A DNA stretch of 64,000 nucleotides from an uncultured Nitrospinota bacterium (lineage in GTDB: Bacteria > Tectomicrobia > Entotheonellia > J063 > CAVPRW01), in NCBI GenBank assembly GCA_963707985.1, contig CAVPRW010000004.1:5793-69792 (forward strand), given 5' to 3'. The notes under the pieces were generated by a model. The model made no database searches. It was not told where the DNA came from and worked only from the letters and a program-made list of their open reading frames with translations. Both the position numbers and the translations under genes were made by a program. This document shows positions 1 through 26,717 of the stretch, piece after piece. Each line of letters begins with the position of its first letter. Within the stretch, counting starts at the first letter, position 1.

Positions 1-102
1 GGAGGCTGTGTGAGCCCACGAGCGCCACGATCTGTGGACGCGGCACCTGGCCGGTGGCGCCTGCCCGAGTGGCGCAGCGCCAGAGCGCCTGGGGGGGCAT
101 GA

Positions 103-1030
103 GCCAGGTGGGGAGCGCGTGTTGGGCCTGAGTGGTGCACGCCGTATCACGCGGGTTCCGCACGTGGGGCCCCGCGGGGCCTCACGTGCCTGGGGCGCGG
201 CGGTGACATCGGGCTGGTGACCCGGGGTGGCGGTGGCGACGGTGGTGGCACCGCGGCAGGGGCTGACCCGGGTGAGCACCGGCCGGTTCCCAGGGCTCAG
301 GACGCCGTCCGAGCGGACGGTGCGGCAGCGGTCCGGCAGCCCGTGCGGCAGCAACCGGCGCCGGACCGCCTCGGCAGGCACCGTCGAGGTGGTGACCGGA
401 GCCGTGGCCGCGTCCTTGTCCGGCAACGTGCCGTGGCCCTCTTCCCGCGTGAGGACACGGGTGTGGCGGAGGGCCACGCGCACGCTGGACGGGGCCAGGT
501 CTCGGAAGGCGGCCGCGCCACGGCCGACGGGCGCGCAGGGCACGACCCCGTCCGTATGCCAGACGTGGGCCTCGACGAGCGGGCACAGGGCGGTCGGTTG
601 TCGGGACGCGCGGAACGTCGCGCGGAAGCGTCCCGACCGGGGGGTGACGTGGACCAGGCCGTCTGGGCGGGAAGGCCCCCAGGCGCCCACGGCCGAGCAG
701 CGTTCGCACCGCTTCGAGGCTCAAGAGCACTGGCCGTTTGTTCGCGCGCGGGGCGCGCACACAGCTGCGGGGAGTCCAGTCGCGGTGGAGGGTGGACGCG
801 CAGCCGCACGTGAGGCCGTACCGTGCCATCATGCTGGCGCTCCGAGCGGACGGCTTGACAGGCGTGAGGTCCCGGAACTCCTGGCGGAGTGCTTCCGCGG
901 TGCTCACGTCTGGGGACTGGTGAGCGTGCTCCGCCAGTCGGCGTACGGCCCTGACGTCTCGCACCTGGGTACGTGCAGACACGCCCCGGAGCTGAAGGCC
1001 CTCGAGCATGCGCTGGCGCCGCGCGGTCAT
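103..1030 (-). mobile_element. Decayed IS91-like element: N-terminal part of the tyrosine recombinase (SAM-like domain, ~1030-690) joined by internal deletion to the C-terminal part of a Y2 (HUH) transposase (~680-103)
   Basis: Minus strand reads MTARRQRMLEGLQLRGVSARTQ..SPD..LRQ (integrase N-terminus, family type MTxLRQRMIEDLQLRGLSxRTQ). After a frame change it reads FRDLAPSSVRVALRHTR and RRLLPHGLPDRCRTVRSDG (family type FRYLAPYIFRVAISNNR and RRFLQHVLPxxFxKVRYYG), then a degenerate CxxC (GPTCG) and terminal RSPP. Confidence 0.85.
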
Positions 1031-1150
1031 GGCGATCCCGCCTCTGAGGTGGGTGATGGAGCGCACCGGAAGGAGCGGTCTACTGGGCTCGCGACCGCCT
1101 GAGGAGGCGTCACTTAGGGGTGGGCCGTGCCCAACTGCGCGCAGCGCTTA

Positions 1151-1213
1151 GTTCAACCACTTGCTGGAGCGGATGCGCAAACAGCCGCGCGCCGGTGAGC
1201 TTGGCCGTTCTTG
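1151..1213 (+). other. Degenerate attC-like recombination site (solitary)
   Basis: R'' GTTCAAC (matches RYYYAAC), 5-nt spacer, L'' GCTGGAGC, inner stem GGATGCGC/GCGCGCC, L' GGTGAGC, 6-nt spacer, GTT. The 63-bp length and 5/6 spacing fit attC. R' (GTTCTTG) and two L-box bases deviate. RBS GAGGAGG plus ATG follows at ~1250-1260. Confidence 0.45.
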
Positions 1214-1448: not shown

Positions 1449-2130
1449 TTGCCACACCATCACCCTCTTCCGGAGGTGTCTCTGCTGCTCTTGCCGCATC
1501 ATCCCGACCGTGCCGTCGAAGCACCATTGGCGCGTGTGGAGGACACGTGGACGACCGAGGTGGTGCCGCGCGTGCCCGTGGACCTCGCCGCGCCGGCTCG
1601 CACCCTGAAAGCCTTCCAGCGCGTCCGTCGTCTGGCCACGCCGTACGAGCGGCTCCGGGCCGTGCTCGCGTCTGTCCTGGGCCCCTGGTCTCTGCGCCGC
1701 CTGGGGGCGTGGGCGGTGCTGATCGGGCTCGCGGATCGCTCCGAGGCCGCCTGGCGCAAACGGCTGCGGGCCTGTCGTCCCTGGTGACGCTGGCTCCTCA
1801 GTGAACTGGTGGCGACCCCGCGGGTTGTGGACCCGCCGCCCCCTCAGGCCCTGGGGCGTGTGCTCCTGGTGGATGCCAGCAGGCTCCGGCAGCCCGGCGG
1901 CACCGGGGATGACTGGCGGCGACATCTGGCCGATGACTGCACCGCTGGCCGGCTTGGGCCGGTGCGGGTGACGGACCGGTACGGGGGCGCACAGCCTCGT
2001 GTTCAAACGGATGCAACAACGGCTCCGGCTCAATCAGATCCGGAGCACGCACCTCGCGAGTGTCGAAGCCACCGTGCGGGCGTGGCTCATCGCCTGGGCC
2101 TGGCCAGAAGGGGCCATGGCGACCATCCGC
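1449..2130 (+). mobile_element. Decayed IS4-family DDE transposase with in-frame stop (1785-1787) and large internal deletion (~1990)
   Basis: Recognisable blocks [52 protein letters not shown] (first catalytic Asp region), VRVTDRYGG, then a jump to LVFKRMQQRLRLNQIRS..VEATVRA (C-terminal catalytic region). Confidence 0.8.
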
Positions 2131-2365
2131 CAAGTCTAACTACTACACCGTGGCCGTTGTCCGCTGTCCAGAGCAGGGCGAGGGGGAGGCCCAAGACGTC
2201 GCACGTGACATGATCCCATAACGGCGACCTTCTGGGACACACCTACGAGAAGCGACAACGTTGACATCAGACCAGCCACACGTTCAGAGTGGAGCATCCA
2301 GGAGCAAACATTCCTGAAAGGGGAGCCATGGCATGACATCGAACCAACATTCACACGGGCTACCG

Positions 2366-8590: not shown

Positions 8591-11500
8591 TCATGTCCCC
8601 TCATCGGCTAGCCCATCATCGCGCCAGGATTCTGCACCGGCGCCGCTGGTCCAGTACCGGCAGAGCGCGGCATAGCTGCAATAGGTGCAGGTGTGCTTCG
8701 ACTCCAGGGGCTGTGGCACAAAGCGGCCAGCCATGGCCAGCTCAGCAATGCGCTGCATGCCGTGTGAGAGCCCCCCGACCTGGTCGGGCTCGAAGAAGGT
8801 GCGGCTCACCTCAACGTCCCAGACCTTGCGCTTGGGGTCCTTGAGCAGCAAGTACTGCAGATGTAGCTCCGCGTCAGGGGTAAGTTGGTACCCATCCTGC
8901 GCCAACTGCTGCAGGGTCAGATAGAGATAGACAGGCAATTGGAACGACGACTGCCCGAGGGCCTCCAGCGCAAGTCGCTCACGATAACGCCCAACGCTAC
9001 CACTATACTTAAAATCCTGCACCAGCACCGCGTCGATCCCCGATGGTCCTTCCCGGACAGCCACCCGGTCGACACGGCCCTTGAGGGCGACCGACCAGGG
9101 GCCGCAGGTCACGGCTCCTGCGAGATCGTACTCATGGTAGCGCGTGCGATAGACATCCGACTGTCGTGTCGCCAGATATACTGCCAGATCGTCGAGGACC
9201 GCCATCAACTCGGCTTTGCGGACGTGCCAGAAGCCGGGATGCCCAAGTCCAGGGTCGTGGCGGCGCCTGGCCAGCAGCTGGTCCGCAATGGCCCGCATGT
9301 GCTGCACTGCAGCCTCGGCCCGGCGGGGAGGGTCGGTATGAAAAAACTCAGACAAGATGCCATGCGCCAACTCCCCCAGGGTCGCCGGACTGACATCGTA
9401 GTCAGGCTCTGTACGGGATGTCAGTCGCAGCACATGTTTGCTGAAGAACGCAAACGGACACGCGGCAGCATCCTCCAGCATGGTGGGAGACCACGGCCGT
9501 TGCGGATCGAGAAAGCGGCCACGCAGATCGATCTGGCGACCGATATCGCCAAACGGCGCAGGGTCTATGTCCGGTGCTGGGCGAGAGCTTAACAGGTAAT
9601 CCTTGCGCCGAGCCTCGATCAACGCCAACGCGCGTAGGCGCTCGACTACCACCCCACGCCAGCGCAGCACCCTATCCAAGGCAATGGTGTCAGGGCCGCA
9701 GGTTGTCTCGCCCGTCGTCCCCCACGCGAGCGCGGCACGTCGCAACAACTCCCCAGGCTCCAGACACTGGGCCGGGAGTGGTACCGAGGGCAGGGCTGGT
9801 AGGCGCTGGAATACTGGCCCCGGACCATCGACTTCAGGAAAATGGCGTTGCACCTCATCGACGAAGATCGAGGGGAAGATCGCTTCGCCATTGGCCGTGC
9901 GGCGTCGGGTACGATAGCATGCATGTCTGATTGGCTGCTTCCAGGGCCAGAAAGAAGAGCAAGGGTTCTTCACGGGCCTTGTCGATCGCCGTGAACAGGA
10001 CTTTACCGAGGAGGCGGCGATCCAGGATGCCTGAGAATTTCTCTATCAACACCACGCGGGCCGCTGGATTGAAAGCGCGACGAGCACCGTCGTCAAGCAC
10101 TGGATGGTCGCTATAGTGCCGTGGGAACTCCGTATCCGCCAGGCCAGGGACATACACGTGGTCGAAATCGAGGCCCAGGGTATCCTGGACGCCGAGGACG
10201 CACACCGCCCCCTCCGCCTGCCGTGGCTGATCGAGCGTGACCTCGCGCAGGAGGTCGATCGCCAGCAGACGGAATTCCTGGAACGTGAGTGGCGCATCAC
10301 CCAGTAGGTGCAACGCTTCAGCCCCTGTCCAGAGCGTGTCGAAGAGCGACCAGAGCGCTTCGCGATCACGCTGGATGACCGGCAGCGGAACGGCGGGGTG
10401 CATCCCCATGGCCCGGAAAAAGCCTAGCTGTGTCAGAAGCGATTTGAGGCGCTCGAGATATGCCAGGAAGGGCCGTGATGCCTCGACCAGGTCGTCGAGC
10501 GCCGCGTGCAGCGCATCAACCCAGTCAGCCAGAGCCGTGATCCGCTGAGTGTCTTCCGCGGTTGGTTGCTGGCGACGCACATACGCTGCGAGTTGCGCGG
10601 GCAGGGGGGCATGACTACGATCGAGATAACCCACGGCATTGACCAGTCCCACCACGTCGTTGGGCCAGAGCCCGTCGGGTCGCAGATAGGCACTGGTCAG
10701 GAGCTTTAAGAGAGCCGTCCGGGGATAGGTACTATCGGCTAATTCGAGGACGCTGAACACGGTCTTGGTCAGCGGGACATGAAACAGCGGCAGTCCCCGG
10801 CGGAACCATAGTGTAATCCGATAGCGGCGGCAGACCGACTCCAGCAGATCGCCATACTGGTCAAGATTCCGCACCACGATGGCAATGCGCTCAGGGAAGA
10901 CCCCACGCGCCAGGAGCTCGCGGATACGACGCGCGATGGTTTCCACTTCACGTGCACGACCGGGGGCGGCGATCACTGTGAACGTCTCGTCGGGGACAAT
11001 GGCTTCCCCCACAGCCCCCCTGCCGAACAAGCGCTCGCTCAGGGCTTCTAGATTGCCGCCACGGGCTCTGGGTCTGGCAAATTCCGGCAGTACCAGCGCA
11101 GCCAGGCTTTCGTCGGCAACGAAGCGTTGCCAGGTGAATTCCGCGAAGGTCACCGCATCGATGTTCAGCCCGCTGGAAAAATGCTGGAGTATGCCGCCGT
11201 CAGCGACCAGCTTGATGAGCAAGGACACCAGGGCGTAATGCACCAGGGAGAGATGGTAGATATCGTGGACGACGATGCGCCGTATCCCCCGCAGCAACAC
11301 TGGCGTCGTCCCAGCGGTCAGATGCTGCTGGAGCCGAAACAGGATGGCCAGGTCTTGGTCACCTCGGTCAACCAGGCCGGCCTTGGCCAGGTAACTTTGG
11401 TAGCAGCGCCATACTTCGAGGAGCCGATACAAGGCCTGACGGGTCGTTGGAGAGACCGTGGGGTCCAACAGGTCAAGGCTCGCCGCAAAATCCTCGACCC

Positions 11501-23120: not shown

Positions 23121-26100
23121 TCACGGCTCCTCCCCTAAGGTATCGAGCAACGCCTTGGCCTCTTGCAGGTCCGTCGGTGTCAAACCCCTCGGTGAACCAG
23201 CCGTAGATCGGCGCCAGCAGCGCATGGGCTTCGGCCTGCTTGCCCTGTTGCTGCCAGAGGCGACTGAGGCTCATGGCGGCCCGCAGCTCCAGCGATTTCG
23301 CCTCCTGGCGGCGGGCGACGTCCAGGGCCCGCTGCAACCAGGTTTCCGCCTCCGCCTGCGACGTCCCCGGCTGCCGCAGGAGCAAGACGCCCCGCAGGCG
23401 ACAGACTTCCGCTTCCCACCAGCGTTCCTCATGCTGCTCCACCAGGGTGTGGGCCTCGACCAGCGCCTGAAGGCCGTCTTCCGGGTGGCCCAGGTGGGCA
23501 GAGACGTCCGCCAGCAAGGTGCAATAGTATGCGACGAGCAGAGGTGCCTCAGTGGCTCGGTAGGCGGCGATCCCCTGGCGGACCTGGCTCAGCCCCTCCT
23601 CGCCCTGGCCCTGCATGGCCAGCGCCCACCCGCGCAAGATCGTTCCCGCGGCCGCCCAGAATGGAAAGCCCTGCTCGATCGAGAGCGCGACGGCGGCCTC
23701 TGCCTGCTCGTGCACGGCTGGCACGTCCCAGCGAAACTGATAGACGTAGGCCGCCCAACACCGCGCACGCGCCAGACTATAAGGATGCGGCAGCTCGTGC
23801 GCCAACGCCAGGGCCTCGTGGAGGCGGGCCAGGGCTTGCTCCGGATACCCCAGTAACCAGAGGGTCACAGCGGCATGGCCTCGGCAGGCAACACCCGGAT
23901 CCTGGCCCATACGGAATACCGGAGCACGGTGCTGGTCTGGTGTGTCGCGTGCGATGGCTTCCTCCAGGTGCTGGCGGGCAACAGGCAACGCGCCCAGGCA
24001 GAACGACGTAAACCCGAGGGCAGAGTGGGCGACGACCGTGAGCGCGGGGTCGTCGGCACGTTGCGCCAGGCGCAGCAAGGTTTCGCCGATCTCCCGCGCT
24101 GTGTGCAACTGTAGCCGTCCTACATAAAACCGGTACAGACCATACAGGACCGGGACCAGCTCTGGGGTCTCGCCCACCTGCTGACACAACGCGTGTGCCT
24201 GGATGTAGGCGTGCTCCACCTCGGGCGCTCCCTGTCCTTTGGCCATCACCAGTGCTGCGCCGAGGGCTGTGTACAGGGTTAAGGCTTGCTGGGTATGCTC
24301 AGGCGTCTCTGGCAGGGTCGTGAGCAGCTCGATCCCGGTGGTGCAAGTGGCTGATGGCTTCCACATGGGCCGAGCGGTCACTGGCCTGTTGGCCCGCCCG
24401 CAGCCAGTAGACCACCGCCTGCTCGGCGCAGCCCGCCGCGGTGTAGTGCTGGGCGACCAGCTCTGGTTGCGTCGCGACGGTCTCCGGGAACTGCGCCTCC
24501 AACGCCTGGGCAATACGCTGGTGGTACTGCTGGCGGGTGCTCCGCAACAACGACTGATAGGCCACGTCCTGGATGAGCGCATGCTTGAACGTGTAGGTGG
24601 CCTGCGGCGGCACCCCCCGCTGGTACAGGAACTCCGCTGCCACCAACTGGTGCAGTCCCTGCTGCACGATCCCCTCCTCCCACGGGGCCACGGCGCGCAG
24701 CAGCGCGTAGGAAAACTCGCGCCCCAGGGTGGCCCCGAGTTGGGCCAGGGCCTTCACCGCCGCGAGGCGGTCGAGCCGCGCCATGAGCGAGTCGTGCAGC
24801 GTGGCGGGAATGGCCAGCGGGTGCAGGGGCCCGGTCAGCGCATAGCGCTCGTCCCGCTCCTGGAGCAGTCCCGACTCCAGCACCATCTTGGTCAATTCCT
24901 CGACAAACAGGGGCACCCCATCGGTCTTGGCCACGATCTGCTCGACCACCTCGGGAGGCAACACCTTGCCGTGGGCCACCTGGCGAATCACCTCCACGGC
25001 CTGTCGTCGGGGCAAGCGGTTGACCGTGAGCTGGGTGAGATGGGCCCGCCCCGTCCAGGGCGGGCTGAAGTCCGGCCGACAGGTGAACAGCGTCAGGATG
25101 CGGGCGGTGGGGCCTTGATCGACCAGGAGGCTGAGCAGCTCGAGCGTGGACGGATCGACCCAGTGCAGGTCTTCCATGACAAAGAGCACGGGCTGCTGGG
25201 CGGCGATGCGCAGCAGGATCGTCAACAGGACGTGGAGGGTCTGCTGCTTCTGCTGCTCAGGCGACACCGTCACGGGCGCATAGTCCGCCGGCAGCGGCAG
25301 GGAGAGGAGGGCGGCAAAGAGGGGCACGGCCTCCGCCAGTGGCAGGCCATACTGCACCAGGAACCCCTCCAGTTTGCCCACCTTCTGCTGGGGCGACTCC
25401 TCCCGGTCGAAGCGCAGGACCACCCGCTCCAGCAGGTCGATCAGCGGATACAAGGCGGTGTGCTGGTGGTAGGGCGAACACTGACACGGGGTGAGCCAGG
25501 CCCGGGGCTCGGCGGCCACCTGGTCCGTCAGCACCTGCACCAGGCGCGATTTGCCGATGCCGGCTTCGCCGCTGAGGAGCACGACCTGTCCGAGGCCGTC
25601 TTTGACCTGCGCCCAGCGCTCGAGCAGCACCCCGATTTCCTGCTCCCGACCCACCAGCGGGGTCCACCCGGTACTGCTGGCGGCTTCCAGGCGACTGCGG
25701 GCCATACTCTCATAGAGCACGCGATAGACCGCCAGCGGCTGCGCCAGGCCTTTCAGGAGCGGCGTGCCGAACGGCTGGCAGGCAAAGAACCCACCGAGGA
25801 GCTGAAAGGTCGCCGCACTGATCACCAGGGTATTGGGGGCGGCGAGGCCTTGCAGGCGGGCCGCCACGTTGGGGGTCTCGCCGAGGGCCAGCTGTTCCTG
25901 GCGCGCCCCGTCCCCCACGTCGCCCACCACCACCAGCCCGGTATGGATCCCCAGGCGCACGGCCAGATGCACCTCTCGCTCCGGCCCCAGGGAGGTATGG
26001 AGTTGTCCCATGGCCTCGACGATCCCCAGCCCGGCCCGCACCGCCCGCTGGGCGTCATCTTCGTGCGCCAGGGGGTAGCCGAAGTAGACCAGGAGACCAT

Positions 26101-26575
26101 CACCGAGGTACTGGGCGATATGCCCCTCGAAGCGGGCGATCACTTTGGCGCAGGTGGCTTGATAGGCCTGCACCACCTGGCGCAGCTCTTCCGGGTCGAG
26201 CTGGCTCGCCAGGCGCGTCGAGTCCACCAGATCACAGAACAGGACGGTGAGCTGCCGGCGTTCGGCATCAGGAGGGTGAGGTGTGGTGGGTGGGGAAGCC
26301 CCCTGGGGGGAGTAATCTTTCTGGCTGACAGGCGGTGGGGGGTATTGGGGTGCTGGAGGAGCTAGCGTCTGGGGCGCTGCTGTGTCATCGGTCCAGCGTA
26401 AGCCACGACCCGCGTCCTCGACCACCTGTGGATGCGCGTAGAGGAGTTCGTCCTTGAGGACCGCCAGCTGCTCGTCGTCCAGGTGGAACTGGAGCTTCAG
26501 CGCGCTATAGGTCACCCGGCCTCGGCGCTGGAGGAGGGCCACGACTTGGTCGAGGACATCATAAAAATCCATCAT
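23121..26575 (-). CDS. Cyclase-AAA(STAND)-TPR copy 3, full length, with frameshifts near 24340 and 23172
   Basis: Head domain, [51 protein letters not shown] helices, C-terminal [15 protein letters not shown]. Confidence 0.88.
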
Positions 26576-26717
26576 GGCTCCTCCAGCCGTGTCAGCCAGT
26601 GGGGGTCTCGTCGGATGCGGTAGCCGCCAGACGCGCCCCTGTCCACCCCTGTGGTTACGTTGCATTCCTGTGGACCGTGTATTATCCCGCCTGCGCCAAC
26701 GTCACTTCCGCTTGGAG

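Follow-up and report, generated by a model that had tools for sequence, protein, structure and literature searches.

How can a dead insertion sequence (IS) become far richer in guanine plus cytosine (GC) than the genome that carries it, through substitutions of essentially one class? The question is raised by the left end of the stretch analysed here, which we call the window: 64,000 nucleotides of contig C4 (C4:5793-69792) in the 8.28 Mb genome of an uncultured Nitrospinota bacterium (G000; 48 contigs, 59.2% GC; C4, C29, C43 and similar labels denote contigs of this genome). The complementary strand of window positions ~1-1192 is a dead, internally deleted IS91-family element, consisting of a tyrosine-recombinase gene, orfA, followed by a Y2 transposase gene; we refer to it as the C4 copy, or the relic. 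Its lineage moved from ~60% GC, as in an intact relative and in the host, to ~75% GC almost wholly by A:T>C:G (AT>CG) transversions. We consider it highly probable that this pattern is real and restricted to mobile DNA. Its cause is less certain: a process acting inside the cell and directed at the elements, the explanation that we favour, has in our judgement a probability of roughly 0.5.

Substitution spectrum of the relic

The relic was recognised through two open reading frames (ORFs) on the complementary strand, the one at 1..690 (-) matching the Pfam family Y2_Tnp (PF04986; 22.6 bits, cut-off 20.9) and the one at 182..1066 (-) giving a weak match to Phage_int_SAM_4 (PF13495; 17.3 bits, below the cut-off). 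A preliminary description of this DNA, made from its letters and from a presumed family consensus, had called the locus IS91-like, which is borne out both by the PF04986 match and by alignment with the intact transposase of a metagenome contig, L120, described below. Its count of 84 A/T in the 360 nucleotides of window 241-600 was reproduced on recounting (76.7% GC), and window 103-1030 stands at 74.5% GC against 59.2% for the genome. A BLAST comparison of the region with the whole genome revealed four paralogues, located at C29:123238-124646 (96.8% identity, with the same architecture as the relic), at C43:21909-24413 (~85-86% identity, with 1,019 bp extra), at C22:192392-194601 (72-77%) and on C23 (68-71%). 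Frameshifts are present in all copies of the element in this genome.

The five copies were aligned with MAFFT and changes were polarised by parsimony. The branch leading to the common ancestor of the C4 and C29 copies carries 80 changes, 68 of them AT>CG (37 A>C and 31 T>G), with 8 GC>TA and a single transition; against an expected share of 10%, the binomial probability of this many AT>CG changes is 2e-55. The C43 branch, with 62 changes, is composed of 24 AT>CG, 37 apparent GC>TA and one transition, and adding a further outgroup reveals about half of the apparent GC>TA sites to be parallel AT>CG hits. All 68 derived states, together with the same internal deletion, are shared by C4 and C29, and the 22 substitutions that separate these two copies have an ordinary spectrum (10 transitions, 7 A<->C or G<->T, 4 C<->G and 1 A<->T). 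This normal later divergence indicates that the A:T>C:G bursts preceded the last duplication of the relic.

An unmutated version of the same element is available for comparison. A degenerate pattern search returned one contig, the public JGI metagenome contig Ga0075431_100336665 (L120), which encodes an intact transposase of 365 amino acids containing CRYLAPYIFRVAISNNRV and HVLPDRFIKVRYYG and ending RPNTRSPP-TGA, at a host-like GC content of 0.57-0.63; its 98%-identical protein cluster, P0001, has both PF14319 and PF04986. The presumed family consensus thus exists as a real sequence. Relative to L120 (hand counts on alignment A1), ~174 of the ~197 differences found in C43 over ~1.5 kb are AT>CG, the others being ~16 transitions (several of them specific to L120), 3 GC>CG, 2 AT>TA and 2 GC>TA, the last being the reverse change. 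The relic itself differs from L120 at ~90 sites in alignment columns 1601-2100, ~87 of which are AT>CG (with 1 GC>TA, 1 GC>AT and 1 GC>CG), and ~40% of the A:T pairs of this 500-column stretch have been converted. The near-exclusive direction of change claimed in advance is therefore upheld both on the relic branch and against L120, and the codon changes that had been listed are all found in the DNA alignments (for example TAC>GAC, ATC>CTC, AGC>CGC, AAC>CAC, AAC>ACC, TTT>GTG, GTG>GGG and TAT>TCG). So is the predicted loss of the transposase stop codon at window 105-103, which reads TGA in L120 and C22 and GGC in C4, C29 and C43, by T>G and A>C. Two other metagenome relatives, L124 and L125 (86-89% amino acid identity), differ from L120 by ordinary mixed, mostly silent substitutions. 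The mutation load thus forms a nested series, C22 < C43 < C4/C29, all within one genome, and the metagenome relatives are unmutated.

Other mobile elements and the core genome

The relic is one of many such loci. Repeat pairs of at least 93% identity, obtained from a BLAST of the genome against itself, were tested against the share of A<->C or G<->T differences in the core genome, 0.194. An excess at p<1e-4 was found in 27 of 79 pairs, and pair spectra are bimodal. The excess is mostly one-directional, amounting to 37 versus 2 between C10:18579 and C24:79202, 122 versus 2 between C17:381642 and C30:23, and 20 versus 1 between C1 and C20. By their Pfam content the affected pairs are IS91 (Y2_Tnp and Zn_Tnp_IS91), IS66, IS3 (rve), IS630 (DDE_3) and an IS91-linked integrase; the pairs with a normal spectrum are cellular genes (GroEL, an ABC-transporter binding protein, glycogen phosphorylase, methyltransferases and a dehydrogenase). 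As many as 193 loci, covering 286 kb on 44 contigs, belong to at least one pair with an excess at p<1e-6, and 105 of the 143 islands of >=70% GC overlap repeats. Inside mutated copies the GC content is 0.665, versus 0.556-0.584 in their 400-bp flanks.

The IS630 family provides an independent polarised example, using an outgroup copy from another genus (G008). Its dead copy on C17 has undergone 127 changes, 97 of them AT>CG and 4 of them A:T>G:C transitions, so that 19-27% of its A:T sites are changed, with no difference between the three codon positions or between the ORF and the DNA outside it; the copy on C30 is intact and has a host-like GC content of 0.557. Mutated versions of elements were later copied to new loci, as seen in C4 and C29, in three IS3 copies with 12-13 changes in common, and in three copies of another family that have ~18 changes in common and were likewise copied after mutation.

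Several properties of the process can be read from these alignments. A>C changes are as numerous as T>G changes and the two are mixed at random, meaning that the process is strand-symmetric, and the changes are scattered along whole elements; strand-coordinated runs, such as damage to single-stranded DNA would leave, were not detected (pooled z = +1.45). At 306 mutated A:T sites, a 3' A is enriched (0.30 versus 0.17) and a 3' C depleted (0.18 versus 0.34), and no sequence motif was found around these sites beyond this weak 3' preference. The ratio of AT>CG to transitions ranges from 68:1 to ~1:4 among branches, so the process is episodic, and the bursts, at anything from 1-5% to >20% of the A:T sites on a branch, exceed what ordinary polymerase error allows.

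One case departs from the whole-element pattern. A 7-kb duplicated unit (C19:54400-61600 and C20:52050-58850), with an IS91 copy at its start and a TIR-domain gene among its contents, looks like IS91-type mobilisation of adjacent DNA. Its spectrum is normal except in a 630-bp patch within one ORF of unknown function, a cargo gene of the unit (C19:60547-61175), where the C20 copy has acquired 22 A>C or T>G changes, mostly at codon positions 3 and 1, and the ORF is still open. A separate 4.8-kb block at C9:24934-30281 (66-72% GC), which contains a liv-like ABC transporter operon and is flanked by inverted repeats of 188 bp with 95% identity, may be a composite mobile unit; it was considered as a non-IS victim of the process and dropped, having no close relative with which to polarise it and genes that appear open.

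The core genome was compared with that of a sister species in the same genus, G001. Across 82 kb of orthologous DNA there are 6,698 transitions (60%), 2,167 A<->C or G<->T, 1,777 C<->G and 543 A<->T differences, and at 8,686 four-fold sites there are 1,366 transitions and 454 A<->C or G<->T differences, the latter nearly balanced by direction (249 versus 205). Transitions thus make up 56-60% of core differences, and the A:T>C:G process has left no mark on core genes, on their silent sites or on duplicated cellular genes. An intact MutT-like gene encodes a 130-residue Nudix protein with a MutT-like box; this protein scores 83.6 bits against TIGR00586, for which the cut-off is 97.9, and 3 of 14 control genomes exceed that cut-off. 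The fpg gene is also intact. A mutY-like gene (C19:48300-49314) comprises the catalytic HhH/FeS domain only and ends where the C-terminal domain that recognises 8-oxoG should start; it is read through from an upstream ABC-ATPase fragment, and the MutT-like gene lies 4 kb downstream.

Other genomes give a mixed picture. In other genera of the same class (G004, G006, G009, G014/15), IS630 and IS91 pairs have a normal spectrum; IS copies in G001, G011 and G008, which were assembled separately, have a moderate excess of A<->C or G<->T differences; and the IS91 copies of G010 are identical to each other. In G010 there are at least 8 such identical IS91-family copies (L103, L109, L114, L117 and others), each with one in-frame TAG within the Y2_Tnp match, which could mean either that a disrupted element has recently multiplied or that read-through is programmed.

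Make-up of the element and its surroundings

The element runs from window ~1192 down to ~-238, its left end (C4:5554) lying beyond the left edge of the window. Read on the complementary strand, it begins with a 5' leader and element end (1031..1192 (-)), where the homology with C29 stops at 1192 and where a terminal block, TGGTTGAACTAAGCGCTGCGCGCAG, at window 1159-1135 (-) is conserved in all five paralogues (5/5). The N-terminal part of orfA follows at 694..1030 (-), starting with ATG at 1030-1028 and including the SAM-like domain of a tyrosine recombinase that accounts for the weak PF13495 match; in the C43 and C22 copies, as in a sister family (PF00589), the whole of orfA can be read. The junction of the 1,019-bp internal deletion falls at 693..694, at a CTCGGC microhomology. 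C29 has the same junction, and C43 and C22 keep the ~1 kb that was lost, which encoded the bulk of the integrase catalytic domain and the transposase as far as codon ~170. The hypermutated remnant of the Y2 (HUH) transposase, its C-terminal ~195 codons, occupies 106..693 (-), carries the PF04986 match and aligns codon for codon with L120. It is followed by the former stop codon at 103..105 (-) and by a 3' non-coding tail (1..102 (-) within the window), in which the A<->C and G<->T differences continue; homology with C29 and C43 extends here from window -238 to 1192. The N-terminal zinc-binding domain, PF14319, is present in the C43 and C22 paralogues and in L120 and is deleted from the window copy, making the relic a derivative rather than an autonomous IS91 member. 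The nearest named IS relative comes from a metagenome-assembled genome of the Chloroflexota.

Copies of mobile elements are clustered at the start of contig C4. An IS4-like relic adjoins the IS91 relic at window 1449-2340, with a 98.9% identical copy at C23:161670-162421 and further copies of 77-79% identity on C2, C9, C10, C19 and C45, and just upstream of the window another repeat, C4:3016-4497, is 99.4% identical to C19:18586-20067. Farther inside, window 23144-26586 has dozens of matches in G001 at 65-89% identity, belonging to a very large paralogous family of cyclase-STAND-TPR genes.

Candidate causes and known systems

Three observations lead us to favour an in-cell process: the bursts are large, the nested series of copies lies within one genome, and the patch is smaller than the element. 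Such a process would be directed at mobile-element DNA or coupled to its copying, and would resemble fungal repeat-induced point mutation (RIP) in logic and magnitude while differing in chemistry. It would act locally and in bursts in this host lineage, with element copies and not the wider chromosome as its substrate. The chemical step is probably the placing of G opposite A, either because 8-oxo-dGTP is misincorporated, an error against which MutT normally protects, or because A or T carries a lesion of equivalent effect. Going further, this lineage might possess an active system that recognises transposable-element DNA and inactivates whole elements by A:T->C:G bursts, a prokaryotic counterpart of RIP, which we put forward tentatively and think rather unlikely.

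A number of observations weigh against this explanation. To our knowledge, no enzyme is able to turn A:T into C:G, and the analysis yielded no candidate gene. The 96.8%-identical copies C4 and C29 were not hit again and cellular duplicates were spared, for which reason targeting triggered simply by repetition fits poorly. Of the two alternatives raised in the preliminary description, the one invoking a process aimed at mobile or repeated DNA accordingly survives in part: restriction to mobile DNA withstood all tests run, four-fold sites having no directional A:T>C:G load, the RIP-like expectation that any repeat is hit did not hold up well, and the targeting itself is a conjecture about mechanism. 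The IS4-like relic next to the IS91 relic has a modest AT>CG share, 16 of 94 changes on its own branch and 13 of 31 on the branch of the C9, C10 and C45 copies. The sharp boundaries of mutation at element ends could equally be explained by mutation elsewhere followed by transposition into the present sites. Finally, A<->C and G<->T are the classic pairs of Illumina channel confusion, and a 42-mer of the hypermutated relic had no exact match in public metagenome contigs, so that the mutated forms rest on this one assembly.

The point about boundaries leads to the explanation that survives best beside the favoured one, namely that the elements were mutated outside the chromosome in a setting resembling MutT deficiency (an extrachromosomal replicon with a permissive polymerase, or a host lineage that lacks 8-oxo-dGTP sanitation) and were then transposed, or mobilised in trans, to their present sites. 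The signature is that of a mutT mutator over many rounds of replication, with pure AT>CG change, equal strands and random positions; mutated tracts coincide with element ends and leave normal flanks; mutated copies did move to new loci (C4/C29, the three IS3 copies) and decayed normally after insertion, as C4 versus C29 demonstrates; and all IS families are affected whatever their transposition chemistry. However, none of the contigs is GC-rich or skewed (48/48 lie at 57-61% GC), the nested series from C22 through C43 to C4/C29 is found within one genome while metagenome relatives are unmutated, a 630-bp patch is hard to square with residence of the whole 7-kb unit elsewhere, and dead copies would have to be mobilised repeatedly. 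On balance we regard an outside origin as possible, if doubtful.

A sequencing or assembly artefact, in which A and C, or G and T, were systematically miscalled (Illumina dye-channel confusion or loss of the green channel) and the errors entered the consensus of multi-copy elements that are hard to assemble, would account for the affected classes, which are the cross-talk pairs named above, for the confinement to repeats, several affected copies of which lie at contig ends, and for the unmatched 42-mer. It is difficult to reconcile with one-directional loads of 5-17% of all sites, far above consensus error, or with the C4 and C29 copies, which at different loci share 68 derived states and a deletion yet differ normally at 22 sites. 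Mutated copies also contain indels and frameshifts, unique flanks and core genes are clean, and a milder excess recurs in IS copies of the separately assembled G001, G011 and G008. We therefore consider an artefact improbable.

The other alternative of the preliminary description was a lineage-wide spectrum like that of a mutT mutant, visible in unselected DNA alone. In its favour, the affected DNA consists largely of dead IS copies and the IS630 changes ignore codon position. Several findings refute it: transitions dominate both the 82 kb of orthologous DNA and the 8,686 four-fold sites, neither of which has a directional excess; the dead C4 and C29 copies diverge normally; from branch to branch the ratio of AT>CG to transitions swings between 68:1 and 1:4; and the MutT-like and fpg genes are intact. 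We give this explanation very little credence. Least credible of all are two familiar routes to high GC, namely that the elements came from a GC-rich donor or that the copies underwent GC-biased gene conversion with one another. These would suit IS copies that are GC-richer than the host and the overlap of 105 of 143 GC islands with repeats, but both predict many A:T>G:C transitions (seen at 1 of 80 and 4 of 127 changes) and disagree with the host-like GC of the intact relative L120 and with changes not concentrated at silent positions; gene conversion, moreover, cannot produce states unique to one copy.

Spontaneous mutation in bacteria is generally AT-biased, and bacterial control of insertion sequences is attributed to deletion, selection and ordinary decay. 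Here mobile DNA has been driven the opposite way by a single mutation class, with RIP-like intensity, and the rest of the genome is untouched. We know of no element-restricted point hypermutation in bacteria. If true, an element-directed process would represent a new genome-defence or transposition-linked mutagenic pathway and a possible A:T>C:G mutator tool; alternatively, there would be a hidden compartment in which mobile elements are periodically replicated with a MutT-less spectrum. Either possibility would alter how the age, origin and composition of insertion sequences are read in genomes, and the 193 affected loci are a natural data set for dissecting the process. A full-text literature search, which included PMC13212565, found no report of IS-restricted A:T>C:G hypermutation.

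Each of the known systems that come closest shares some features with the present case. In gene content and order the element itself resembles the IS91 family with an upstream tyrosine-recombinase orfA, and Y2_Tnp and Zn_Tnp_IS91 are found in its intact relatives; the copy in the window differs in being dead, with a 1-kb deletion, frameshifts and a lost stop codon. The IS91 family can mobilise adjacent DNA and deletion derivatives in trans.

The mutation spectrum resembles that of the Escherichia coli mutT (Treffers) mutator, being near-exclusively A:T>C:G, on both strands, with little context and a raised GC content. The effect of the mutator is genome-wide, whereas here it is seen in mobile elements only, with a normal core and an intact MutT-like gene. 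Diversity-generating retroelements also aim mutation at adenines, but there a reverse transcriptase copies a template into a short variable repeat, replacing A by any base on one strand; the changes described here affect both strands, go only to C or G, extend over whole elements and involve no pair of template and variable repeats. Fungal RIP is likewise a heavy, one-directional mutation that kills transposable elements, altering tens of percent of the target base in the element and not in its flanks. RIP, however, converts C:G to T:A with a preference for CpA, depends on an enzyme resembling a cytosine methyltransferase and on a sexual phase, and hits any duplicate. The changes in this bacterium are A:T>C:G with a weak 3'-A preference only, and they have spared cellular duplicates and one repeat pair.
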